A stretch of DNA of 64,000 nt from Escherichia phage RudolfBernhard_Bas96. Shown here one piece after another: positions 4,211-64,000 of the stretch (within the stretch, counting starts at the first letter, position 1; each line of letters opens with the position of its first letter). Location of the stretch: sequence record PQ850623.1. The stretch is one strand, 5' to 3'. The notes below the pieces were generated by a model that made no database searches, was not told the origin of the DNA, and worked only from the letters and a program-made list of their open reading frames with translations. The position numbers were made by a program, and so were the translations under genes.

Positions 4211-4555
4211 ATGAGTAAAGAATCAACAATCGCTGGACTGGAACATCGACTGGAAGCTGCTAAAGGTGCAGTTGCACATGCAGAAGATGTACGTAAACTT
4301 CTGGAGAACCCACTGTTCCGTAAAGTAATCCTTCGCCAGTTCTGTACTGAAGATTGTGCACGTTACGTGCAAGAGTCTGGTGACCCACTGCTTGAAGCAA
4401 ATAACCGTGCAGATGCATTGAACATGGCTCAAGCTGCTGGTCACTTACGTCGTTGGCTCGACCTCGCTATTCGTATGGGCGAAAACGAAGCTGATGTTAT
4501 TCTACAGGTAGAAGAAGAACTCGACGCAGTTCGTGCTGAACCTGAAGACGAATAA
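4211..4555 (+). CDS. Hypothetical late protein
   Basis: 114-aa ORF, ATG start, tightly packed between portal and scaffold-like gene. Confidence 0.5.
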   Translation: MSKESTIAGLEHRLEAAKGAVAHAEDVRKLLENPLFRKVILRQFCTEDCARYVQESGDPLLEANNRADALNMAQAAGHLRRWLDLAIRMGENEADVILQVEEELDAVRAEPEDE

Positions 4556-4574
4556 TTAACCGGAGATATTTCCT

Positions 4575-5795
4575 ATGACTACGGAAGCTGCAACCACAGC
4601 TTCCGACATTCTCGCAATGTCGGATGATGAGATTCTGAATATGGAAGCCCCAGCAATTATCGCTGAGGAAGATACTTCCACTCAGAACAACCCAGAAACC
4701 AACGGCGTACAGACTCCTGATGAAGAAGTTGACACCCCTGCTGTTGAAGACCTACCAACCGAAGAAACCTCCCCTGAAGCCGAACCAGATGAAGAAGATT
4801 CAGCAAATACTTTAACTTCTGATAAAGTTGATGATAAAGTTGTTGACACAGAAGTTGATAGTAACGGTGAGCCGATTACTAAAGCTGAACCTTCTACTAC
4901 TGAACCAGGCCAGGAACAGGAAGAAGAAGGCAAACAGTCTGAAGGTCTGCCTGCTGACTTCAACTATAAGGAAGGTTACGAAAAGTTGATGGCTCCTTTT
5001 AAAGCTAACGGCAAAGTGATTACTCCCCGTTCACCGGAGGAGGCCATTAGCCTGATGCAGATGGGTGCTAACTATACTCGTAAGATGCAAGAACTAAAGC
5101 CTTACCGTAAGGTAATGCTGATGTTACAGAACAACGGTTTAATGGATGAGGATAAACTTTCTTTCCTTATTGACCTGGATAAAAAGAATCCAGAAGCCAT
5201 TAAGAAGTTGCTCAAAGACTCTGGTACAGATCCTCTGGACTTTAACCCAGATGAGGAAATTAACTACCAGGGTGGCAATCACCGTGTTACCGACACCGAA
5301 GCAGATTTTGCAACCGAAATTGACGACTTAAAGTCTACTCAAGAAGGACAAGCTACATTAGGTGTTATCGGCTCGACATGGGATGCTGCCAGTAAAGATG
5401 CTCTTTACCAGAATCGTGGCCTACTCCAGACTATTCACGAACAACGTGAGAATGGTATTTATGACACCATTGCAAACGAAGTGAACCGTCTTCAGATGTT
5501 AGGCCAGATTCCGGTAGGTACTCCGTTCATTCAGGCTTATAACCACGTCGGTAACCTCCTTGCACAACAAGGGGCATTTAACCGAGTGGCTAAGCCAGAA
5601 TCGGTACAAGCAGTCAAGCCAGTGGTTCAGCCGGTAGTGCGTGTAGCACAACCTAAGCAGACTCTGGCTAACAGTGAGCAAGCTAAAGCAGCTTCCCTTA
5701 ATCGGGCTGCTACACGTAAAGCAACACCTATTGTAAACCCACTCGCTATGAGTGATGAAGATTTCGCTAAACTCCCAGTACCGGGTAGTCTTTAA
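4575..5795 (+). CDS. Acidic scaffold-like protein (putative scaffolding protein)
   Basis: 406 aa; highly acidic, Pro/Glu-rich N-terminal third; directly upstream of the capsid gene; GGAG RBS. Confidence 0.4.
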   Translation: MTTEAATTASDILAMSDDEILNMEAPAIIAEEDTSTQNNPETNGVQTPDEEVDTPAVEDLPTEETSPEAEPDEEDSANTLTSDKVDDKVVDTEVDSNGEPITKAEPSTTEPGQEQEEEGKQSEGLPADFNYKEGYEKLMAPFKANGKVITPRSPEEAISLMQMGANYTRKMQELKPYRKVMLMLQNNGLMDEDKLSFLIDLDKKNPEAIKKLLKDSGTDPLDFNPDEEINYQGGNHRVTDTEADFATEIDDLKSTQEGQATLGVIGSTWDAASKDALYQNRGLLQTIHEQRENGIYDTIANEVNRLQMLGQIPVGTPFIQAYNHVGNLLAQQGAFNRVAKPESVQAVKPVVQPVVRVAQPKQTLANSEQAKAASLNRAATRKATPIVNPLAMSDEDFAKLPVPGSL

Positions 5796-54836: not shown

Positions 54837-56054
54837 TTAACTTAATGCATAGTCTGTTTCAAGAATGTCCTGCCAGAGGCTGTCATCCAGCTTACCAGCG
54901 GAGAACTCTTGTCCCAGTACCTGAGACAGGATGAAGCCCAGCAGGTCACTCTTAGCAATGTCAGACAGAATCTGATTGTACTGACGACGCAAGTCATTGC
55001 CATAGTTAGGGTGGCAACGGAAGCAGTCATGTACAGTCATTACAGGGAATGGTTTCTTAGGCATGGTATTGAGCGTAGCCATGATTACATCTGTATCAAC
55101 CAATGCAATCGTTACTGAGTCCAGATAATCAAAGATACGGGTAGACAGGAATCCCGACTTCTCATAGTTAGTCCACAGTGTGTTAACCATTTCATAGTTA
55201 TCATTGGAGCCAACCATGTAATCACTGGTTCCTTCGCAGAGGGACTTAATATAGTTCACCTGGTTCATGCTGAAGTTACAACGACGTAGCATCTCGCGTA
55301 CCACCATCCCATCAATAGAGTGGGTGATGTTAGCAGATAGCATACGGGTCTTTTCTTCAGTACCCTGAACCATACGAGTGATATCGAATGGTTTACCTAA
55401 GAAGTTAACAGTCTGTACTTCAGGAACCATGACCTTAATGACAGCGTGGAAGTTGTCAGGCAGTACCCATACGTAACGGTTAGCATCCGGGTTGCCACAT
55501 TGCAGTAAGAACTTGTTCAGTGCCCAAGGACCACTAGCAACAGTTTTCATTACATTCTCAAAAGTCTTGATACGGATACCTTCACCGAATACTTCTTTCG
55601 GCTTAGCTTCTGAACCATAGAATGCAGTCATAACTGCCTGCTTAGTATCACTACGTTTAATACGAGATGCTTCTCCAAGGATGTCCAGCATCTTGTGGTA
55701 GATAACTGTGTAAGCATCACGACGTAATGGCTTACCATTCTCTCCCATGTAGTTAACTACGTTACACAGTTCAGCAGCAGAACGGTCACCAGTCAGGCAA
55801 GCCAGTAACTGTAAGCCAGATGATGTAGCATCCAGAGCTACGGCATAACCGATAGGCTTACCGGCTTTCATATCTTTCCATGCGTTTACACCAGCGTAGA
55901 ACAGCGCAGATTCTTCAGCTTCATCTACCAGATTGAACAGGTTAGCTTCATTCTCGTCGAACCAGCTAATACGTTCATCCCATGTCTTCTTATCCAGACC
56001 GTAAGAGTTCGCAATATCAATTTTTAAATACTCTTTAGCTGTGAAAATCTGCAT
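54837..56054 (-). CDS. N4-type RNA polymerase II large (catalytic) subunit, T7-like
   Basis: 405 aa; T7 RNAP motif A-like DATSSGLQLLACL, motif B KQAVMTAFYGS, motif C VHDCF. Confidence 0.75.
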   Translation of the reverse strand: MQIFTAKEYLKIDIANSYGLDKKTWDERISWFDENEANLFNLVDEAEESALFYAGVNAWKDMKAGKPIGYAVALDATSSGLQLLACLTGDRSAAELCNVVNYMGENGKPLRRDAYTVIYHKMLDILGEASRIKRSDTKQAVMTAFYGSEAKPKEVFGEGIRIKTFENVMKTVASGPWALNKFLLQCGNPDANRYVWVLPDNFHAVIKVMVPEVQTVNFLGKPFDITRMVQGTEEKTRMLSANITHSIDGMVVREMLRRCNFSMNQVNYIKSLCEGTSDYMVGSNDNYEMVNTLWTNYEKSGFLSTRIFDYLDSVTIALVDTDVIMATLNTMPKKPFPVMTVHDCFRCHPNYGNDLRRQYNQILSDIAKSDLLGFILSQVLGQEFSAGKLDDSLWQDILETDYALS

Positions 56055-56055
56055 C

Positions 56056-56637
56056 TTAGGCTCCTAGTTTCCACTTATATCCGTATACTTGTGCATACGT
56101 ACCATTAATTACTTGATTAATATTAGAAGGTATACCATTAACACTTCGTGCAGCAGCACTAAGTGAATGGAACGTCTTAATGTATTCGCCATCTAGTGAG
56201 TACTGCTCAACAGGCTTAGCTGATTTAGTATTGATGCCATTAATTGCATCAGAGTAGTACCTCTTTACGTTGGTATTAGCTGTAACAATACGAATGTTAT
56301 CCAAGGAATAACCTTTGTAATCATCCAACCTGTCTAAGCTAGGCTTCAAGGCAGTTGGATAATCTTCTAATACCCACTTGTCATACAATGTGTGAAATTC
56401 TTTGTTTGAATATACCCATTTCTTTAGCTCCTCCTTAGTGAAGGACACAGGAGTAAATCCTTTCTTCTTGGTTCTACTAATAGAATTGGAGTACATTTGA
56501 TTAATGACCCCATGTTTTGAACGGGTAAAGCGTTTAAGGCAGTCTTTACAGTCTGCCCTTACACCTTGTTTGCCAGTGGACTGTTTATTGAACATGTCCA
56601 GAGGCAAGTTCTTCTTACATACTGAACATGTCTTCAT
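56056..56637 (-). CDS. Homing-endonuclease-like protein inserted between RNAPII subunit genes
   Basis: 193 aa; N-terminal Cys cluster CSVCKK...CKDC, central YSLDNIRIV, C-terminal repeated DNA-binding-like modules; sits exactly between the two RNAPII genes. Confidence 0.4.
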   Translation of the reverse strand: MKTCSVCKKNLPLDMFNKQSTGKQGVRADCKDCLKRFTRSKHGVINQMYSNSISRTKKKGFTPVSFTKEELKKWVYSNKEFHTLYDKWVLEDYPTALKPSLDRLDDYKGYSLDNIRIVTANTNVKRYYSDAINGINTKSAKPVEQYSLDGEYIKTFHSLSAAARSVNGIPSNINQVINGTYAQVYGYKWKLGA

Positions 56638-56638
56638 A

Positions 56639-57457
56639 CTAATCCTCGTTTACTAGTTCTTTATCTGCAAATTCAATCACTGCCTTGTTGTAGGATGTCC
56701 CTTGAAAATTAATATGGTATCCACAGGCATAGGTTCTGCCCCTCTTGTCATACTTATGCGCTAGTGAGAAGTTATTGCCTTCCTGAGTCACTAATTCCAT
56801 TACTTCTTTAGCAGTACGACTGTACTTCTCAAAGGCTTTAACTCGTTTCTCATAGTCCTGACGGGTTTCACCCTCTTTGGGTTTATCCATATTAGGACGA
56901 GAGTCTTTTACATAGTTAGCAACGTCCCAGTTAATACAGAGGCGTTGGTTGTTCATACGGTTGATGTGGTCAAGGCAGACGTCCATCTCATGATGGTTCT
57001 TCTTGAGGATGATGCTTCCTTTAGTCTGGTAGTAACCAGTATCCCTGTTAGTTCTGACGGGATTGGGAGCACTTACTATAGGTAATGGATACTGGAATGC
57101 TTCCAGTTCCATCTGAACATCTTCACTAATCTCATAGATAACACCGAACTTGTCGATGGTAGGGTCATAGTTGAAGCAGTCATTCTCTGCCATCTTATGC
57201 AGACAGTCAGCGATGTACTGAGCATCATCTGAGTGACTCATGAGAGAGCCAATCATAGTCTGGATGTCAGCACGTTTATGTAGGGCAATCTGCACCATTG
57301 CATCAATGAGCAGCTTATAATCAATATCTAAATAGGCAGCGAATGCCTTAAAGTCAATTTCTTTGGAGTCCTCGAATTCCTTCCTCATGCGAGGCAGTAA
57401 TTGATTTTTATTGAATAGGACTTCAAGCTGCTTCTGATGTTCAATAGATGAGTACAT
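56639..57457 (-). CDS. N4-type RNA polymerase II small (N-terminal) subunit
   Basis: 272 aa; GGAGA RBS; assignment by adjacency to the catalytic subunit and N4 gp15/gp16 arrangement. Confidence 0.5.
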   Translation of the reverse strand: MYSSIEHQKQLEVLFNKNQLLPRMRKEFEDSKEIDFKAFAAYLDIDYKLLIDAMVQIALHKRADIQTMIGSLMSHSDDAQYIADCLHKMAENDCFNYDPTIDKFGVIYEISEDVQMELEAFQYPLPIVSAPNPVRTNRDTGYYQTKGSIILKKNHHEMDVCLDHINRMNNQRLCINWDVANYVKDSRPNMDKPKEGETRQDYEKRVKAFEKYSRTAKEVMELVTQEGNNFSLAHKYDKRGRTYACGYHINFQGTSYNKAVIEFADKELVNED

Positions 57458-57488
57458 CGCATATTCTCCAATTAGTTAATTACCACAA

Positions 57489-57501
57489 GGTGCGGAGCAC
57501 C
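57489..57501 (-). promoter_or_regulatory. Candidate vRNAP early-promoter hairpin GGTGC-GGA-GCACC
   Basis: Perfect 5-bp inverted repeat around a GGA triloop on the template (+) strand, 38 nt upstream of the RNAPII small-subunit start. Confidence 0.5.
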
Positions 57502-57505
57502 CTTC

Positions 57506-57856
57506 TTATGACCAGTAGTTGTAAGCATCACCTAAGTGTTTACGCCATGCTTCAGGTAACAGTACATTGCCAGTAACATTATTGAACAGGTATGGGTCCA
57601 GAAAGTCATCTCCCATTACTTTGAAATCCCACTGTGGATTAGTAGATGCATAGGAAATAAAGCCTTCAACGAAGCCATAGATAGCACCCTCTTTAATTCG
57701 GTTACCATTGCCATCCCTTACTGGAATGGCAAAGCTATTACCATAATGACCGTAGGCCATACCCCAACGTGCACCGTGCTTCTTATAGGCTAACTTGGCA
57801 GCAGCATTGGTATGCTGACCTAATGTGTTAGTAGTGAATACGAAGATTTCTTTCAT
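57506..57856 (-). CDS. Hypothetical early protein with Gly-rich Rossmann-like N-terminus
   Basis: 116 aa; IFVFTTNTLGQHTNAAAKLA...GNSFAIP pattern. Confidence 0.45.
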   Translation of the reverse strand: MKEIFVFTTNTLGQHTNAAAKLAYKKHGARWGMAYGHYGNSFAIPVRDGNGNRIKEGAIYGFVEGFISYASTNPQWDFKVMGDDFLDPYLFNNVTGNVLLPEAWRKHLGDAYNYWS

Positions 57857-57859
57857 TAG

Positions 57860-58240
57860 TTACCCTTTTGGATTTTCTACAAAATAGTTATACATAGCCC
57901 GAACGAGCTTCTCTTTAATAACCTCACCATGACATGGTTTCGGATAACAGAAGCATTGTAAGGCTAGGCCTTTTTCATCAATGGCTTTATTACCAAGACG
58001 ATTGAGTTCATCCAGTACAACTGGATTACCTTTATCAATCTGTTCTTGCAGCCAGACTTTATACTTAGCAATTACTTGCTCTCTGGTTCCATGCTTACCA
58101 ATGACGAATGGATTGCCTAACGGTGAGCCACGACCAATGTACTCACCGTATTTACCGTGATGTTTATTAACAATGATAATCGGACGTGCGGATATACCCA
58201 ACAGAGCATTGGTGTTATCACCTAATGAGATAGTTTTCAT
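57860..58240 (-). CDS. DUF4326-like protein
   Basis: 126 aa; GNPF motif and LQCFCYPKPCHG Cys/His motif as I recall DUF4326. Confidence 0.4.
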   Translation of the reverse strand: MKTISLGDNTNALLGISARPIIIVNKHHGKYGEYIGRGSPLGNPFVIGKHGTREQVIAKYKVWLQEQIDKGNPVVLDELNRLGNKAIDEKGLALQCFCYPKPCHGEVIKEKLVRAMYNYFVENPKG

Positions 58241-58551
58241 GGTTTAAGTACCTGAAATGCGAATACAGGGCGTTTACTACGCCATTGATTCATAGCCAGT
58301 TCACTGGCAGGAGAGCCATCATGTAAGTCATATATGAATGTAATCATATACTCTGGTTTCTCTGGGAAGTTCTCTGTAGAGAATGGTAGACCTGCTTCCT
58401 TTAATACAGGAACCAGTGGTGATTTGGCTTCACAGTAAATAGTGAACTCTTCATTGAATGCTTTACTAGTCTGAGATACATAATCAATATTACGCATCAT
58501 CTTATCGACATCAGTAAATGTATTATCATGTACTACTACAATGTTATTCAC
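58237..58551 (-). CDS. Hypothetical early protein
   Basis: 104 aa; ATGA overlap with both neighbours. Confidence 0.45.
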   Translation of the reverse strand: MNNIVVVHDNTFTDVDKMMRNIDYVSQTSKAFNEEFTIYCEAKSPLVPVLKEAGLPFSTENFPEKPEYMITFIYDLHDGSPASELAMNQWRSKRPVFAFQVLKP

Positions 58552-58805
58552 TCTACTTTCTCCAGGGTTAGGTATACTGTATTTGGTTGAGGTACATAGT
58601 CACAAAAACCAATTTCCTCTTGTCTGCCACTAGACTTCCAAATACAGTTTTCGGTTAGCTTAGGCTTTCTACTAAATCCAATTAGTGAGGCATTCTTACT
58701 CTTCTGGGGACGAGGTAATAAGGCTACATATTTAACCCATAATGGGACTTCAATAGTTTGCCCCATATAGTTAAATGATTTAGTTACAGGGAATGTAATA
58801 ATCAC
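58548..58805 (-). CDS. Hypothetical early protein
   Basis: 85 aa; ATGA overlaps. Confidence 0.45.
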   Translation of the reverse strand: MIITFPVTKSFNYMGQTIEVPLWVKYVALLPRPQKSKNASLIGFSRKPKLTENCIWKSSGRQEEIGFCDYVPQPNTVYLTLEKVE

Positions 58806-59023
58806 TTTTGGTATCCTTGTATATAGTTAATACGGCGAATACGCTGAGTAGATGCCTTAACAGCCATCTGCTGATTCTCTTCTTTATGCTGATTCTTTAA
58901 CAACTTATCCCATTCTTCCTGGTTCCGTTGTTTCTGCAATATACGACTACAACGCTTATGATTGGCAACTCCACGTCCTTTCTTACAGACTGGGCAGATA
59001 CCATAATCGCTCGTGTACATCAT
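58802..59023 (-). CDS. Small Cys-containing basic protein
   Basis: 73 aa; CPVCKK...HKRC; Lys/Arg/Gln-rich C-terminus. Confidence 0.4.
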   Translation of the reverse strand: MMYTSDYGICPVCKKGRGVANHKRCSRILQKQRNQEEWDKLLKNQHKEENQQMAVKASTQRIRRINYIQGYQK

Positions 59024-59328
59024 TGGCTTAAAGCCTCCATTAATATTTTACGAATAACGTTAACATCAGATTCAGTACCAATTAAACCAACAGGTTTCTT
59101 TGTACTATCTGTGACAAAGGATGCAATCCTTTCCATCTCTGCTGTAATTAATTTGTCACCACTAATAAGACGATTACGAAGGTAGGCTTCATAAGCTACT
59201 TCTATATCCTCTACTGTGGTTCTTTCATTACGAGTGAATGGATTACTTAATGGGAAGGGTAAATGTATCCGTATATTCCTGTCAGCTACCTTAGCTAAGT
59301 GAGGAAGTATACATACTATTTCATTCAA
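59020..59328 (-). CDS. Hypothetical early protein, weakly DUF4326-like
   Basis: 102 aa; PLSNPF...VAYEAYLRNRL parallels the GNPF...KYKVWL block of 57860-58240 but lacks the Cys/His motif. Confidence 0.4.
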   Translation of the reverse strand: MNEIVCILPHLAKVADRNIRIHLPFPLSNPFTRNERTTVEDIEVAYEAYLRNRLISGDKLITAEMERIASFVTDSTKKPVGLIGTESDVNVIRKILMEALSQ

Positions 59329-59365
59329 GGTTCTTTCTCCTATTTAAATACATATCTAACTATTC

Positions 59366-59403
59366 AAAAATAAAAAATAGGAGCCTCCTATTGGAGGACT
59401 CCT
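59366..59403 (-). terminator. Rho-independent terminator
   Basis: Imperfect stem AGGAGCCTCC/GGAGGACTCCT; ATTTTTTATTTTT on the - strand. Confidence 0.6.
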
Positions 59404-59405
59404 TA

Positions 59406-59534
59406 CTATTTAATACATGGGTGATTGAAGGTAACAATCTTACGTACTGGTTCAGATGCCTGTTTCTTAGCAGCCAGACGTTCTTTCATCTTCTGTACGT
59501 CAGATTTATTACCTAAAATAAGTGATTTACGCAT
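59406..59534 (-). CDS. Small basic ORF (42 aa), unannotated in the ORF track
   Basis: ATG at 59534 with AAGGA RBS 9 nt upstream; Lys-rich product MRKSLILGNKSDVQKMKERLAAKK...; ends right at the terminator hairpin. Confidence 0.25.
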   Translation of the reverse strand: MRKSLILGNKSDVQKMKERLAAKKQASEPVRKIVTFNHPCIK

Positions 59535-59538
59535 TATA

Positions 59539-60012
59539 TTAATCCTTACCATGATTAGAGTGGAAACCATATTCATTGTTAGCTAACTCTCTAGCTTCTA
59601 CAGCTTCGTCGAAAGTGTTGAATCTACCTAAATGCTTTAGCTTACCATTAATCTTTATACGAACTCTCCATTTACCAGCTTCATATCTTACTCCCGTTGC
59701 ACCCGACATATTATTAGAAGCTCTACTTCTATTACGATTGTTATCTTGGGAAGATACTGCCCTTAGGTTTTCTAAACGGTCATCTGTTCGTATGTGATTG
59801 ATATGGTCAACCATATAACCGTCAGGCAATTTACCGTTGTGCATTTCCCAGATTATAGTAGCTGCCTTAAGATGTCGGTATTTTACTTGGACATATACAT
59901 ATCCACTGTACGTGTCGAAACTTCCAGCAATATCCCCACTTTTAGCTCTGCCACTACTAACCTTCCAGTAGAGTTTGCCTTCACGGTAGGAGAAGAATTC
60001 ATGCCAGTCCAT
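59539..60012 (-). CDS. HNH homing endonuclease with AP2 domain
   Basis: 157 aa; HNH core VDHINHIRTDDRLENLR; AP2-like GVRYEAGKWRVRIKINGKLKHLGRFNTFDEAVEAR. Confidence 0.7.
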   Translation of the reverse strand: MDWHEFFSYREGKLYWKVSSGRAKSGDIAGSFDTYSGYVYVQVKYRHLKAATIIWEMHNGKLPDGYMVDHINHIRTDDRLENLRAVSSQDNNRNRSRASNNMSGATGVRYEAGKWRVRIKINGKLKHLGRFNTFDEAVEARELANNEYGFHSNHGKD

Positions 60013-60205
60013 ATTTGGTTCCCATGATTAATGACTTACGCATGTTTAGTACTCCACATAAAGTTAAAAGGTTTATTGTTACGTACAATTCTTACAGCCA
60101 TTTGATAGCCATTGAGTTGCACAACACCATAGTGTCGCTTCTGTACTCCAGTGTGATATCTACGGAAGATACATTCTTCAATGGCATCCTCAATGTTAGT
60201 GAATA

Positions 60206-60394
60206 TCACTGGTTCCTCTTTGCAAACTCTTCTGCTTGTTGCTTGTAATACTGAGTCATTGCTTTTTTGTGTTTAACACTGGCAATGAGACACTCGATAG
60301 TAACGAATGGCAGCTTAGCAATAAGCAACCATTTATGACGTAACTTCCAGCCTAGAAAGTAGAAGATTACACAGAAAGCGATGAAGTCTAACAT
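60206..60394 (-). CDS. Small membrane protein
   Basis: 62 aa; N-terminal TM helix FIAFCVIFYFLGW. Confidence 0.4.
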   Translation of the reverse strand: MLDFIAFCVIFYFLGWKLRHKWLLIAKLPFVTIECLIASVKHKKAMTQYYKQQAEEFAKRNQ

Positions 60395-60494
60395 GGTTAA
60401 TTCCTCTTCTAAGATAGCTCTATTGAGATAGCTTTACTTTCTAGGGACTCTTCGTCGAAAACCCCTGAAAAGTAGAACTTATCTTATCGTCTAG

Positions 60495-60526
60495 TTAAAA
60501 ATAAAAGGACTACCCGAAGGTAGTCC
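60495..60526 (-). terminator. Rho-independent terminator
   Basis: Perfect 8-bp stem GGACTACC/GGTAGTCC with CGAA loop; TTTTATTTTT on the - strand. Confidence 0.7.
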
Positions 60527-60535
60527 AGTTGTTGA

Positions 60536-60919
60536 TTAGAAAGTCAGTTTACGAGCATATTTATTCTCGTCTGCTGGGATGTCAGCAGCCTCTGCTTTCA
60601 CACGACGAAGTTGAACTTGCAGGTTAATGATACCTTCTTCACCTGGTTTCAGGTTCTGAGCATATTCGATTAACTGTTCCAGCAAATCGTTCTGTGCACA
60701 ACGCATAGCACGGAAGTCAGCATTGCTGCTATTAGTAGGCAGTGGTTCCTGAGTATCCAGTGGGATACCAGTAGGCAGAGAGATGAATTTCTCATCATCA
60801 GAGCCTTCATTAGCAATATAACCAATGTTCAGCCAGAACTGAGCTTTTGGCTTATCAGTTTTAGCAGTAGAAGTAGCAGCAGCGTTAGATTGACCGAAAG
60901 TGAATTTTTGAATAGACAT
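60536..60919 (-). CDS. Early protein (hypothetical)
   Basis: ATG at 60919 with GGAGAG RBS (track start 61018 lies too close to the promoter hairpin); 127 aa. Confidence 0.5.
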
Positions 60920-61030
60920 TTTGTACTCTCCAGATTGATAAATGTTTGATTTATGGGTTTGTCCGTCGGTGACTAAACCCAAGAAAAGACTTAGGATTTC
61001 GATAAGAAGTGGATTCATTCTTATCCTTTA

Positions 61031-61043
61031 GACGCGGAGCGTC
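61031..61043 (-). promoter_or_regulatory. Candidate vRNAP early-promoter hairpin GACGC-GGA-GCGTC
   Basis: Perfect 5-bp inverted repeat around GGA on the template strand, between a terminator hairpin and the next early gene; preceded by ATCCTTTA. Confidence 0.5.
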
Positions 61044-61102
61044 TTGGTTTTTAGAAGTAGAAGTAAAGTAGATAAATATCTACTTTTGACTATCTATCTA
61101 AT

Positions 61103-61133
61103 CTTTATAAAAGGAGACTCCGAAGAGCCTCCT
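61103..61133 (-). terminator. Putative terminator
   Basis: Stem AGGAGACTC/GAGCCTCCT (one mismatch) with CGAA loop; modest T/A run. Confidence 0.45.
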
Positions 61134-61139
61134 ATTGAT

Positions 61140-61463
61140 TTAGTCTTTAGTCAGGATGTCGATTACTTTTGAATATTCTGCGTTATAGATACGAGCGTTC
61201 TCTGAATCTTTGCAGAATTCTTCGATACTTTTCTTACGCATAGTCTCGTTCATAGCTGTTTCTTCAGCTAATTTGTTTACGAATGTATGCATTTCTAATT
61301 TAGTACGAATGGCTTGTTTCTCTGCCATAGTAGATACATATGAGTTAAGCATACCTACTGCTTTAGTAGCTGTGCTGAATGTATCTGCAACAGTAGTAGC
61401 AGCAGAGTTAACAGTACCCAGTAAAGTTCCTGCGGTCATACGTACAGTAGCGGCAGTAGTCAT
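61140..61463 (-). CDS. Early protein (hypothetical)
   Basis: 107 aa; Thr/Ala-rich N-terminus; 50 nt downstream of a candidate promoter hairpin. Confidence 0.5.
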   Translation of the reverse strand: MTTAATVRMTAGTLLGTVNSAATTVADTFSTATKAVGMLNSYVSTMAEKQAIRTKLEMHTFVNKLAEETAMNETMRKKSIEEFCKDSENARIYNAEYSKVIDILTKD

Positions 61464-61506
61464 GATGATAGCTCCAATAGTTGATGATAGGACGACATGT
61501 CCATAA

Positions 61507-61519
61507 CATGCGGAGCATG
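61507..61519 (-). promoter_or_regulatory. Candidate vRNAP early-promoter hairpin CATGC-GGA-GCATG
   Basis: Perfect 5-bp inverted repeat around GGA in a 215-bp noncoding G-rich gap; preceded by TCCATAA. Confidence 0.5.
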
Positions 61520-61678
61520 TGTAACGTGTAAGGTGGGGTAGGGTAGTGGCTACAGGGTCAACATACCGGGGGGGCTAGTTGAGTGTAAGGGTGTAGCCCC
61601 AGCCACACCACTGTAGCCATACATAGCTATCACAATTTTGACATGCAAAAATATTATAACTATCCCACTTATAAGCAG

Positions 61679-62017
61679 TTAAATAGGAGGTGAGATTCGG
61701 GTGATAATACGAGCTATGTCAGAGTAATAATCAGGATGGTTAGGGTTACCACTACTATGTCTTACGGCAGCATCTTTGATAAACACATGAGCATAATCAC
61801 CTAATAAGATGAAGGCTGACTCACCATTTTGCAAGATAACTATCTTTGCATTGCTGTTAGTAAGAATCTTATGCCCTTGTGCAAAGTCTGCTAACTCTCC
61901 TGGTTCCATTATTAGTGTGGAATCCCCATAGGACATAAGGTGGATGATTGCTTTCTCTGGTTCAGAAGAGTAGTGCAGTAAGTCAGTACCACTCATGCCT
62001 AAGAGTTTAACGTTCAT
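61679..62017 (-). CDS. Early protein, member of tandem paralog array
   Basis: 112 aa; shares hydrophobic core motif with neighbours (STLIMEPGELADFAQG). Confidence 0.45.
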   Translation of the reverse strand: MNVKLLGMSGTDLLHYSSEPEKAIIHLMSYGDSTLIMEPGELADFAQGHKILTNSNAKIVILQNGESAFILLGDYAHVFIKDAAVRHSSGNPNHPDYYSDIARIITRISPPI

Positions 62018-62056
62018 GCTTCAGTACCTGTACCAGATATGGGGATGAGTTTAGTT

Positions 62057-62341
62057 TCACCGTCTTTCCTTATAGATTGGGGTGTTATCCTCGAAGGATA
62101 GGATGTACTTATCTGTATTGAGATGCCACGGACTGAATCTATCCTGCCAGGACATAGGTGTTCCTGGTTCAAGTAGATGTACTTCTGCTTTCTTATTGTA
62201 TAAGAAAAGCAATCCCTGTAGTTCGTGCAAGGACTGTTCGTCTGGAACCAGGATAAGTACATCAGCGTCTAGGTTAGCTACTTCTTTATGGTGGGTGTAT
62301 TCATCCCAAGACAGAACTGAATAAATTTTACTGATAACCAT
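62057..62341 (-). CDS. Early protein, member of tandem paralog array
   Basis: 94 aa; DADVLILVPDEQSLHELQGLLFLYNKKAEVHLLEP aligns with 63539-63829. Confidence 0.5.
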   Translation of the reverse strand: MVISKIYSVLSWDEYTHHKEVANLDADVLILVPDEQSLHELQGLLFLYNKKAEVHLLEPGTPMSWQDRFSPWHLNTDKYILSFEDNTPIYKERR

Positions 62342-62658
62342 TAGTAGCTCTCGTCGCTAGATAAATATGAGGAAGGATAGAGGGTAATGAGTCTACCTGT
62401 AAGAGTAGTATCTACCATAGGCTCACAAGTGGAATAGATATATACCCGTGCAAACTCAGATACTTCAACCGATGTATCTATCTTAGTGAATGTAATTGGT
62501 ATGCCTAACATTAGACAAGAACCAATAAGCTCATCAGCTTCTTCACTAGGTTCATATAAGATAGTAGCACCATCCAGTTTACCACTTAAGCAATCTTGCT
62601 TAGTTACCTTACTGAGATAGCAGCTTGTACTTAGTGCAATTAATGAGTAGAAGTGCAT
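62341..62658 (-). CDS. Early protein, member of tandem paralog array
   Basis: 105 aa; GATILYEPSEEADELIGSCLMLG core. Confidence 0.45.
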   Translation of the reverse strand: MHFYSLIALSTSCYLSKVTKQDCLSGKLDGATILYEPSEEADELIGSCLMLGIPITFTKIDTSVEVSEFARVYIYSTCEPMVDTTLTGRLITLYPSSYLSSDESY

Positions 62659-62661
62659 AAC

Positions 62662-62976
62662 TTACATCCTTACATAGTAGTAACGGTACTCATCGTTCTC
62701 ATAGCGGCTACCCCATTGGTATTCATCAGATACCATCATGTACGGGATAGGGTCATTAGCGTTATAGTTGGTATAGACAGAAGGAGGAATGATACATACA
62801 ACCTTACGGTCATTACCTGCTAGGAAGAGTTGGCCCCTTACTTCATGATAATCTTCTAAGGTAGGAACCAGTATTACTTGTTGAGGGTTGCTGTTCATGA
62901 CTTCTTCTAAAGTGAAGTCGGTTGTGTACATGGACTCCCCCTTAACAAAACTGGGGACGGTCATTATGAATTTCAT
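62662..62976 (-). CDS. Early protein, member of tandem paralog array
   Basis: ATG at 62976 preceded by AGGAAGGA RBS (track start 63051 overlaps the upstream gene); QQVILVPTLEDYHEVRGQLFLAG core. Confidence 0.5.
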   Translation of the reverse strand: MKFIMTVPSFVKGESMYTTDFTLEEVMNSNPQQVILVPTLEDYHEVRGQLFLAGNDRKVVCIIPPSVYTNYNANDPIPYMMVSDEYQWGSRYENDEYRYYYVRM

Positions 62977-63337
62977 GATTAATTTTCCTTCCTTTAGGGA
63001 TAGGTCTGAAGAAAATGGAAAGTGTTTTATTAAAGAGGTTATGTTCAACAATCATTTCCCAGCCAGGTACTTTATAGAACCTAACTCCTGGGAAGAATGT
63101 TTCGAAGTCTACATACTCAGTAAGGTCGTATACAACTGGTTCAGTAAGTATACGCGTATTGATTTGTAGGTTACTTAAGAAAAATGAACCAACTATCTCA
63201 TGGGATTCTTCGCAGTCTGGTAGGAAGACTACATGTTTAGATAGGAACTTACTTACCATCTCTGGTTCCCCTAGGTAGTAGGGTTCCTGCTTACGTAGTA
63301 CTCCAGTAATATCAATATCAAAAGCGTAGATGCACAT
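62942..63337 (-). CDS. Early protein, member of tandem paralog array
   Basis: 131 aa; GGAGGT RBS; KHVVFLPDCEESHEIVGSFFLSN core. Confidence 0.5.
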   Translation of the reverse strand: MCIYAFDIDITGVLRKQEPYYLGEPEMVSKFLSKHVVFLPDCEESHEIVGSFFLSNLQINTRILTEPVVYDLTEYVDFETFFPGVRFYKVPGWEMIVEHNLFNKTLSIFFRPIPKGRKINHEIHNDRPQFC

Positions 63338-63349
63338 AATTGCATACCT

Positions 63350-63389
63350 CCAGAAAAAGAAATGGGGTAGAGCCTCTCGACCCTACCCC
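63350..63389 (-). terminator. Terminator/attenuator-like hairpin directly upstream of an early gene RBS
   Basis: Stem GGGGTAG/CTACCCC enclosing a 12-nt loop, followed on the - strand by ATTTCTTTTTCTGGAGGT (T run merging into the RBS). Confidence 0.4.
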
Positions 63390-63445
63390 TTACCGTTTTC
63401 AATCACGGGTCAGTTCATCCCCCTAGGTACTTATGTACCGTTAGA

Positions 63446-63458
63446 CCTACGGAGTAGG
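63446..63458 (-). promoter_or_regulatory. Candidate vRNAP early-promoter hairpin CCTAC-GGA-GTAGG
   Basis: Perfect 5-bp inverted repeat around GGA on the template strand, between the first two early genes in the window. Confidence 0.45.
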
Positions 63459-63538
63459 AAAGGAGCCGGGGAACCCTGACTGTAGAAGTTATTAACTCTT
63501 TACGAGTACCGCCACTGTCTACTAGGCGGTATGACTAA

Positions 63539-63829
63539 TCACATCATCACCGTCATCCGAACGCTGTCTTTGCTTCGTTTGATGGAGACACTATGAGGTA
63601 ATTTTGTGAAGAACACAAGAGCTGAAAATCGTTTTTCTAAAGAGTAAGTTTCTCTTGGTTCTAAAATCTTAATGCCTGGACGATTCTCTAACAGCATCAT
63701 CCCAGCTAATTCATGATAGGTATCTTCATCATGTGTAATGATAATATCATCCGGTAGAATACCAGCCTTGGTGTGGTCTAGCTCTTTGTATTCATCTTTA
63801 GAGTCGTGGACTCTCATATAGATTCTCAA
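63539..63829 (-). CDS. Early protein, member of tandem paralog array
   Basis: 96 aa; PDDIIITHDEDTYHELAGMMLLENRPGIKILEP aligns with 62057-62341. Confidence 0.5.
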   Translation of the reverse strand: MRIYMRVHDSKDEYKELDHTKAGILPDDIIITHDEDTYHELAGMMLLENRPGIKILEPRETYSLEKRFSALVFFTKLPHSVSIKRSKDSVRMTVMM

Positions 63830-64000
63830 GATAATACTCCTTGGGGAATAGGGTCATCGGAACATTACATACTATTTAGTATCATGAACTTTTTCTATAT
63901 CATGACTAAAGTGTAACTGTATGATATGGTTTCTACAAGGGGTATCTCACCCCAAGAAAAGAATCTTCGTTAATAGACATAACTTTGTAGAGAGATAAGT

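Follow-up and report, generated by a model that had tools for sequence, protein, structure and literature searches.

The window analysed here is a 64,000-nucleotide stretch of DNA from Escherichia phage RudolfBernhard_Bas96 (PQ850623.1), in which four short hairpins with a GGA loop had been put forward as early promoters for the virion RNA polymerase (vRNAP). The window comprises most of the genome of a G7C-like phage (Gamaleyavirus, Schitoviridae, Enquatrovirinae), in an orientation reversed relative to the N4 and G7C records. Its plus strand carries the late genes, including the vRNAP gene, and its minus strand the middle and early genes (24957-61463); the order gp1, gp2, gp15, gp16 is the same as in G7C and N4 (Table 1). 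The last 8 kb matched 83 phage records, nearly all from Gamaleyavirus, the best of them 86-93% identical. When the N4 and G7C records were aligned to the window by their starts, the left virion terminus came to lie at ca. 61605. The minus-strand open reading frames (ORFs) at 61679-63829 would therefore be right-end genes (gp70, gp71, and others) and, since the terminus falls inside the window, the assembly would be permuted, with the terminal repeat collapsed and the right-end genes joined to the left end.

Hairpin promoters for vRNAP are textbook matter for N4, whose template-strand hairpins P1-P3 were reportedly described by Haynes and Rothman-Denes in 1985, Glucksmann in 1992, Davydova in 2007, and Gleghorn in 2008.

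Table 1. Coordinates of the features discussed in the text.
Feature	Coordinates	Strand	Remarks
Predicted P1-type vRNAP early promoter	61501..61519	+	+2C/+1C 61501-61502, spacer ATAA, hairpin CATGC-GGA-GCATG 61507-61519
Predicted P2-type vRNAP early promoter	61025..61043	+	CC 61025-61026, spacer TTTA, hairpin GACGC-GGA-GCGTC 61031-61043
Predicted P3-type vRNAP early promoter	57483..57501	+	CC 57483-57484, spacer ACAA, hairpin GGTGC-GGA-GCACC 57489-57501
Fourth hairpin, CCTAC-GGA-GTAGG	63446..63458	+	read on the minus strand (CCTAC-UCC-GUAGG), probable helix of the structured intergenic element
Putative structured non-coding element, 201 nt	63338..63538	-	covarying helices; ends directly before the gp71 ribosome-binding site
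Predicted intrinsic-terminator hairpin and T-run ending the element	63389-63364	-	pattern scan
vRNAP gene, 3605 aa	13803..24620	+	match to solved N4 vRNAP structures, E=0
gp1 homologue	61140..61463	-	matches G7C gp1 and N4 gp1; phrog_5020; first early gene downstream of P1
gp2 homologue, RNAPII cofactor	60536..61018	-	annotated so in G7C and relatives; phrog_4099; downstream of P2
gp15 homologue, RNAPII small subunit	56639..57457	-	phrog_2166 (N4-like RNA polymerase, E=1e-115); G7C gp15 annotation; downstream of P3
Predicted terminator hairpin after the gp2 homologue	60526-60507	-	pattern scan
Hairpin and T-run after gp1	61113..61132	-	GGAGGCTC-TTCG-GAGTCTCC then TTTTAT; read directly from the sequence

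Three promoter-type sites and their N4 counterparts

A scan of the whole window for perfect 5-bp inverted repeats around a GGA triloop found four on the plus strand (57489-57501, 61031-61043, 61507-61519, and 63446-63458), exactly where the original prediction had placed them, and none on the minus strand, where the loop would read TCC on the plus strand. In 1000 dinucleotide-preserving shuffles of the window, a mean of 0.89 such hairpins per strand was expected, and four or more were reached with a probability of 0.006. For the stricter motif, in which CC and four further nucleotides precede the hairpin, three occurrences were seen versus 0.046 expected; none of the 1000 shuffles reached three, and the other strand had none. 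All four hairpins lie within the last 6.6 kb, in non-coding gaps of a window that is ca. 89% coding. Each has a perfect 5-6 bp stem and a 3-nt loop on the plus (template) strand, and the GGA loop is closed by a C:G pair in every case.

The N4 promoter is a GC-rich heptamer centred at -11 with inverted repeats on either side, in which vRNAP recognises -11A/G, -10G, -8G, and +1C (PMC4496689). Extrusion of the hairpin depends on the outer two bases of the loop and on the G:C pair that closes it, -10G and -12A form a sheared pair, four A residues serve as a ruler without base contacts, and two GTP pair with +1 and +2 (PMC4496689). The -8G and -11G contacts have been called essential (PMC3715699). 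These determinants were all found at 61507, 61031, and 57489, which we refer to as P1, P2, and P3: each site has +2C, +1C, a 4-nt unpaired spacer that sets the CC 11 nt from the loop centre, -8G in the stem, and -9C, -10G, -11G, and -12A. The heptamer GC-GGA-GC, recognised earlier as a core common to three of the hairpins, is invariant among them, and the CC and A/T-rich tract noted ahead of three hairpins resolves into CC plus a 4-nt spacer at the same sites.

P1, P2, and P3 precede the gp1, gp2, and gp15 homologues, respectively, and none is more than ca. 4.1 kb from the predicted left end. Their RNA 5′ ends, all on the minus strand, are predicted at 61502 for P1 (39 nt before the gp1 ATG at 61463 and ca. 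100 nt from the predicted virion left end), at 61026 for P2 (8 nt before the gp2 ATG at 61018), and at 57484 for P3 (27 nt before the gp15 ATG at 57457). The loop centre of the P3 hairpin is 38 nt from the gp15 start codon, the distance given in the original prediction for the RNAPII small-subunit gene. As single-stranded DNA, P1, P2, and P3 were predicted to fold with -4.7, -5.3, and -4.3 kcal/mol, and the N4 promoters span -3.7 to -6.7 kcal/mol. The P2 stem is 6 bp long when the flanking A:T pair is included.

When the N4 record was scanned for template-strand hairpins with purine loops, three were recovered: one before gp1 (90-102, GTTGC-GAA-GCAAC), one before gp2 (559-571, GAAGC-GGA-GCTTC), and one before gp15 (4548-4560, GCTGC-GGA-GCAGC). 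In all three cases, CC and an A-rich spacer of 4 nt come first. The N4 P2 core given in the original prediction, preceded by CATCCAAAA, agrees with this record. N4 and the window thus have in common the gene junctions (gp1, gp2, and gp15), the template-strand CC, the 4-nt spacer, a 5-7 bp stem, a G-R-A loop, -8G, and the closing C:G pair. They differ in the stems (CATGC versus GTTGC in P1, GACGC versus GAAGC in P2, and GGTGC versus GCTGC in P3, window first, the differences being compensatory), in the P1 loop (GGA in the window, GAA in N4), in the P2 spacer (TTTA in the window, with T at -1, and AAAA in N4), and in stem length, which is 5-6 bp in the window versus 7 bp for N4 P2 and P3. Long flanks of P1 and P3 are common to both phages (e.g., ACATGTCCATAA...TGTAACGTGTA). 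The P1 flanks are nearly identical to those of N4 P1. P3 occupies the N4 P3 position with its flanks (ATTACCA.AA); its stem carries a compensatory C:G to G:C change, and the site is identical to that of G7C. P2 stands at the position of N4 P2, and the stems found there in relatives (GACGC, GATGC, GAAGC, or GCTGC) are paired in every case.

An alignment of 23 distinct promoter sequences from 12 phages (N4, G7C, ST4, PhAPEC5, PGN829.1, IME11, pSb-1, ZQ2, K57alpha1.2, Moonfish, Jgk1, and Moo19) was used to follow stem pairing. All stem cells (100%) were paired, versus 14-59% in slid controls; double changes were present in four of five pairs, and none of 500 shuffles reached the observed pairing values. 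In the three outer stem pairs, variation was compensatory only. CC, -8G, -10G, and -12A were invariant, and -11 was G except for A in N4 P1. A covariance model built from N4 and Gamaleyavirus promoters was applied, with filters disabled, to each strand of the entire window; it returned P1 (36.1 bits, E=3e-6), P2 (35.6 bits), and P3 (32.6 bits) and no other site, the scores of P1 and P3 being partly circular because the model holds two identical sequences from relatives. The window P2 is not identical to any sequence in the model. The next best match in the window scored 12.3 bits (E=1.2).

The polymerase expected to read the three promoters is the vRNAP encoded in the window, which shares 66% overall identity with N4 gp50 and 70% within the mini-vRNAP domain. 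Eight of nine promoter-contact residues are kept (K114, R119, W129, K268, K849, K850, D901, and R904); since these are conserved, the N4 recognition code would be expected to hold for this enzyme. DNA mini-hairpins of the form d(GCGAAGC)/d(GCGNAGC), with a sheared G:A pair, are extraordinarily stable. The invariant heptamer GC-GGA-GC of P1-P3 has this form, which would explain how so short a hairpin can be extruded. The fourth site, AC-GGA-GT, keeps the closing pair, but its second pair is A:T and its predicted stability is lower.

The sequence features, the correspondence with N4 promoters, the covariation, and the retained polymerase contacts were all observed directly, and we conclude that the sites at 57489, 61031, and 61507 are very probably vRNAP early promoters, their activity being assigned by homology. 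The four candidates originally proposed would on this reckoning come down to three, those that have all determinants and occupy the positions of N4 P3, P2, and P1.

If the sites work as in N4, gyrase-driven negative supercoiling after DNA entry would extrude the GC-GGA-GC hairpin on the template (plus) strand, and host SSB would hold the other strand open. The injected vRNAP would then bind the hairpin through the loop purines (-10G and -11G) and the stem -8G. The 4-nt spacer would be measured off, so that RNA synthesis begins at a distance of 11 nt from the loop centre, where two G residues pair with the CC. Transcription of gp1, gp2, and the small early genes would follow, and then that of gp15/gp16 (RNAPII). 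Both initiation at these sites and its dependence on supercoiling and SSB are extrapolated from N4.

The hairpin between the gp70 and gp71 homologues

The fourth hairpin, at 63446-63458, has A at -8, T at +1, and G at +2, and the nearest CC is 13-14 nt from its loop centre. As originally proposed, the plus strand is the template of the minus-strand genes around all four hairpins; the fourth, however, stands outside the early region. Its neighbours are the gp70 and gp71 homologues of the right end, past the predicted left terminus, and the DNA there is the last to enter the cell. It was absent from the covariance-model matches even at E<=10, and its predicted single-stranded DNA fold (-2.7 kcal/mol) is weaker than those of P1-P3.

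The hairpin is unchanged in the G7C subgroup (identical in G7C, ST4, PhAPEC5, and Moonfish). Other relatives have CCTAC-TAG-GTAGG (IME11 group), CCTGA-CGAA-TCAGG (Jgk1), or CTTAAGA-TTGCAG-TCTTAAG (Moo19) in its place, all between the conserved blocks CGTTAGA and AAAGGAGCC. The hairpin is thus kept while the sequence and size of its loop are free; a vRNAP promoter would require just the reverse. The gp70/gp71 intergenic region of N4 was not aligned by BLAST, and since MAFFT aligned parts of it only (a CCGCC/GGCGG hairpin and the terminator), N4 is uninformative on this point. The proposal that 63446 is a vRNAP promoter upstream of early genes was not borne out: -8A, +1T, the location at the other genome end, the variable loop, and a score below the reporting limit of the model all speak against it, and we consider it likely that the fourth hairpin is not a vRNAP promoter.

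The intergenic region at 63338-63538 was found to be 92-99% identical in 56 phage records (Gamaleyavirus), versus 72-93% for the flanking genes; in Moonfish it is 99% identical, versus 72% and 78% for its flanking genes. RNAalifold, applied in the minus sense, gave a CCGCC/GGCGG hairpin, an outer helix around two hairpins (one of which is the fourth GGA hairpin), a CCCG/CGGG hairpin, and the terminator. In a 41-pair version of this structure, 95.5% of cells were paired and 12 pairs showed double changes, versus 1-3 in slid controls; none of 500 shuffles equalled it. Several G-U pairs of the minus sense would become A-C mismatches in the plus sense. The folding energy in the minus sense was -74.5 kcal/mol (z=-3.2, with none of 200 shuffles as good), and in the plus sense z was -1.65.

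The covariation, the conservation above that of the flanking genes, and the minus-sense folding suggest to us that the fourth hairpin is a single helix within a conserved, structured RNA element; in the G7C subgroup, the loop of this helix happens to read GGA on the opposite strand. The element at 63338-63538 most likely acts as RNA in the minus sense, perhaps as a 3′ untranslated region (3′UTR)-derived or small RNA ending at the terminator. There is about an even chance that it represents a previously undescribed structured RNA of Enquatrovirinae phages, such as a small RNA or a 3′UTR- or leader-derived regulator. A less likely variant would have the helix of the G7C subgroup double as a weak, non-canonical vRNAP start that yields a short RNA at the right end.

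An Rfam 15 E-value search of 56000-64000 found no match within 63338-63538; two weak matches elsewhere were below gathering scores. A tRNA/tmRNA scan found nothing at or near the sites. A gapped pattern derived from the element found eight contigs in IMG/VR, with only two loop variants, both already seen, and no added phylogenetic depth.

Several points weigh against the interpretation of P1-P3 as promoters and of the fourth hairpin as an RNA helix, besides the partial circularity mentioned above. In P2, position -1 is T and not a purine, and the P2 start leaves a leader of only 8 nt (GGAUAAGA) before the gp2 ATG (10 nt in N4). K267 of the beta-intercalating hairpin is N in the window vRNAP. 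In the library searched, the only transcript map for N4, Gamaleyavirus, or Schitoviridae was that of the LUZ7 study; neither transcript 5′ ends nor in vitro data turned up for this phage or other members of its genus. Only ca. five independent lineages underlie the RNA interpretation of the element. At the fourth site itself, the G7C subgroup has the loop, its C:G closing pair, and the GNA geometry that hairpin extrusion needs, and the distance of 13-14 nt between CC and loop centre is the spacing reported for LUZ7 early starts.

The last of these points, together with the perfect 5-bp stem on the template strand of minus-strand genes and the identity of the site in four relatives, would fit an alternative in which all four hairpins are vRNAP promoters, the one at 63446-63458 being lineage-specific and non-canonical, with gp71 and the genes beyond it, or else a short RNA, under its control. 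We consider this improbable. The -8A and +1T contradict two of the four bases recognised by N4 vRNAP, yet R904, which contacts -8G, is kept in the window. Neither the failure of the promoter model to return the site nor the loops TAG, CGAA, and TTGCAG in relatives is in keeping with a promoter, and the same holds for its place in the last DNA to enter the cell. The CC is part of a covarying hairpin next to the site (GGTAC/GTACC) and reads CT wherever this second hairpin differs, and a transcript started here would run into the strong terminator ca. 50 nt downstream.

For the hairpins, a role in transcription termination or RNA stability instead of promotion is more improbable still, even though a pattern scan listed 61030-61044 and 57489-57501 as terminator-like on the plus strand, with a G+C-rich stem and a T-rich tail. 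No plus-strand genes lie upstream, the whole region being transcribed leftward, and no T-runs follow the hairpins on the minus strand. Separate, longer hairpins with T-runs, the likely terminators, stand after gp1, after gp2, and further downstream, and an invariant loop, -8G, and CC at a fixed 4-nt distance are not properties of a terminator. A terminator reading of 57489, 61031, and 61507 was rejected on these grounds.

That the four hairpins are functionless chance palindromes has next to no probability: the window holds 110 perfect 5-3-5 hairpins of any loop type, so that four with one loop are not extreme in themselves (ATA occurs seven times), but the shuffles described above, the confinement of all four to intergenic DNA of one strand within 6.6 kb, and the retention of three at matching gene junctions in both N4 and Gamaleyavirus, their stems changing in a compensatory manner, oppose it, the relatives refuting chance for those three and stem conservation speaking against it for the fourth also.

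We conclude that P1-P3 are probably this phage's counterparts of N4 P1, P2, and P3, and that the fourth hairpin stands outside this system.

Neighbouring features and other N4-like phages

The number of promoter-type sites varies among relatives. Klebsiella phage KP8 has four predicted promoters, P1-P4 (PMC6950046), e.g., AAGACGCTCCGCGTCTTATGGA, which is the coding-strand form of the window motif; the GACGC stem of the window P2 recurs there, one site precedes the gp2 homologue, and one precedes an RNAPII subunit gene. KP8, G7C, pSb-1, and ZQ2 each have one more site than the window, before extra small genes that the window lacks. In some relatives this extra hairpin is GCTGT-GGA-ACAGC, with CC and a 4-nt spacer and a closing pair T:A rather than C:G (796-808 in G7C, loop at 5245 in pSb-1, and loop at 4807 in ZQ2), and stands before the extra small gene gp1.2. 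Both gp1.2 and its hairpin are absent from the window. The G7C and PhAPEC5 records hold no promoter annotation, only terminators, a stem-loop, and terminal repeats.

Three promoters of this type each have been predicted in Pectobacterium CB1-like phages (PMC6027278) and in LUZ7/LIT1 (PMC3715699), and searching for such hairpins in N4-like genomes is routine annotation practice (PMC3715699, PMC6027278). In LUZ7, ONT-cappable-seq confirmed hairpin early promoters (PMC9163698). LUZ7 resembles the window in the template-strand hairpin, the conserved 3-nt loop, the injected vRNAP, and G as the first RNA base; it belongs to a distant genus, and differs in having nine early starts, stems of at least 4 bp, and initiation at 13-14 nt, not 11, from the centre of the hairpin (PMC9163698).

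A PHROGs search of the right-end and early proteins returned only families of unknown function, except for gp15. For the gp2 homologue, a 160-aa ORF, the PHROG match starts only at residue 34; the P2 leader GGAUAAGA has no clear Shine-Dalgarno sequence. The hairpin and T-run at 61113..61132, likely an early terminator between P1 and P2, was not among the terminators given by the pattern scan. Between the RNAPII subunit genes gp15 and gp16 lies a 193-aa ORF (56056-56637, minus strand), whose counterpart in G7C carries the annotation of a putative HNH homing endonuclease. The ORF occurs in G7C, ST4, PGN829.1, and Moonfish, and no aligned counterpart was found in IME11, pSb-1, or ZQ2, a patchy presence as expected of a mobile insertion. 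Alignment with relatives is also patchy at a 157-aa ORF of the early region (59539-60012, minus strand; 24-85% of the surrounding segment aligned), which suggests another variable or mobile gene. G7C carries a putative HNH endonuclease, gp2.1, in this region. The divergent intergenic region at 63830-64000, between the gp70 homologue and an upstream gp69-like gene, is 94-97% conserved across relatives and probably holds promoters for both directions. G/C-rich inverted repeats surround the predicted terminus (ca. 61540-61680; e.g., GGCTACAG...CTGTAGCC and GGGGCTA...TAGCCCC).

As far as the sequence goes, the three sites are ordinary, new instances of the well-known N4-type promoters. From them, early transcription of this phage is predicted to start at 61502, 61026, and 57484 of the minus strand, and they indicate that the code of the N4 promoters (hairpin, -8G, a ruler of 4 nt, and CC start), along with the polymerase residues that read it, is kept across Gamaleyavirus. 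While this adds nothing new on mechanism, it would be useful for the annotation and engineering of N4-like therapeutic phages. A GGA triloop hairpin is insufficient to define a vRNAP promoter; -8G, +1C, position, and conservation are needed as well. The gp70/gp71 structured element is a side lead of modest weight, and the only part of this work that might repay further effort. To our knowledge, the small RNAs of N4-like phages are almost unexplored, and for this reason the element could merit attention.

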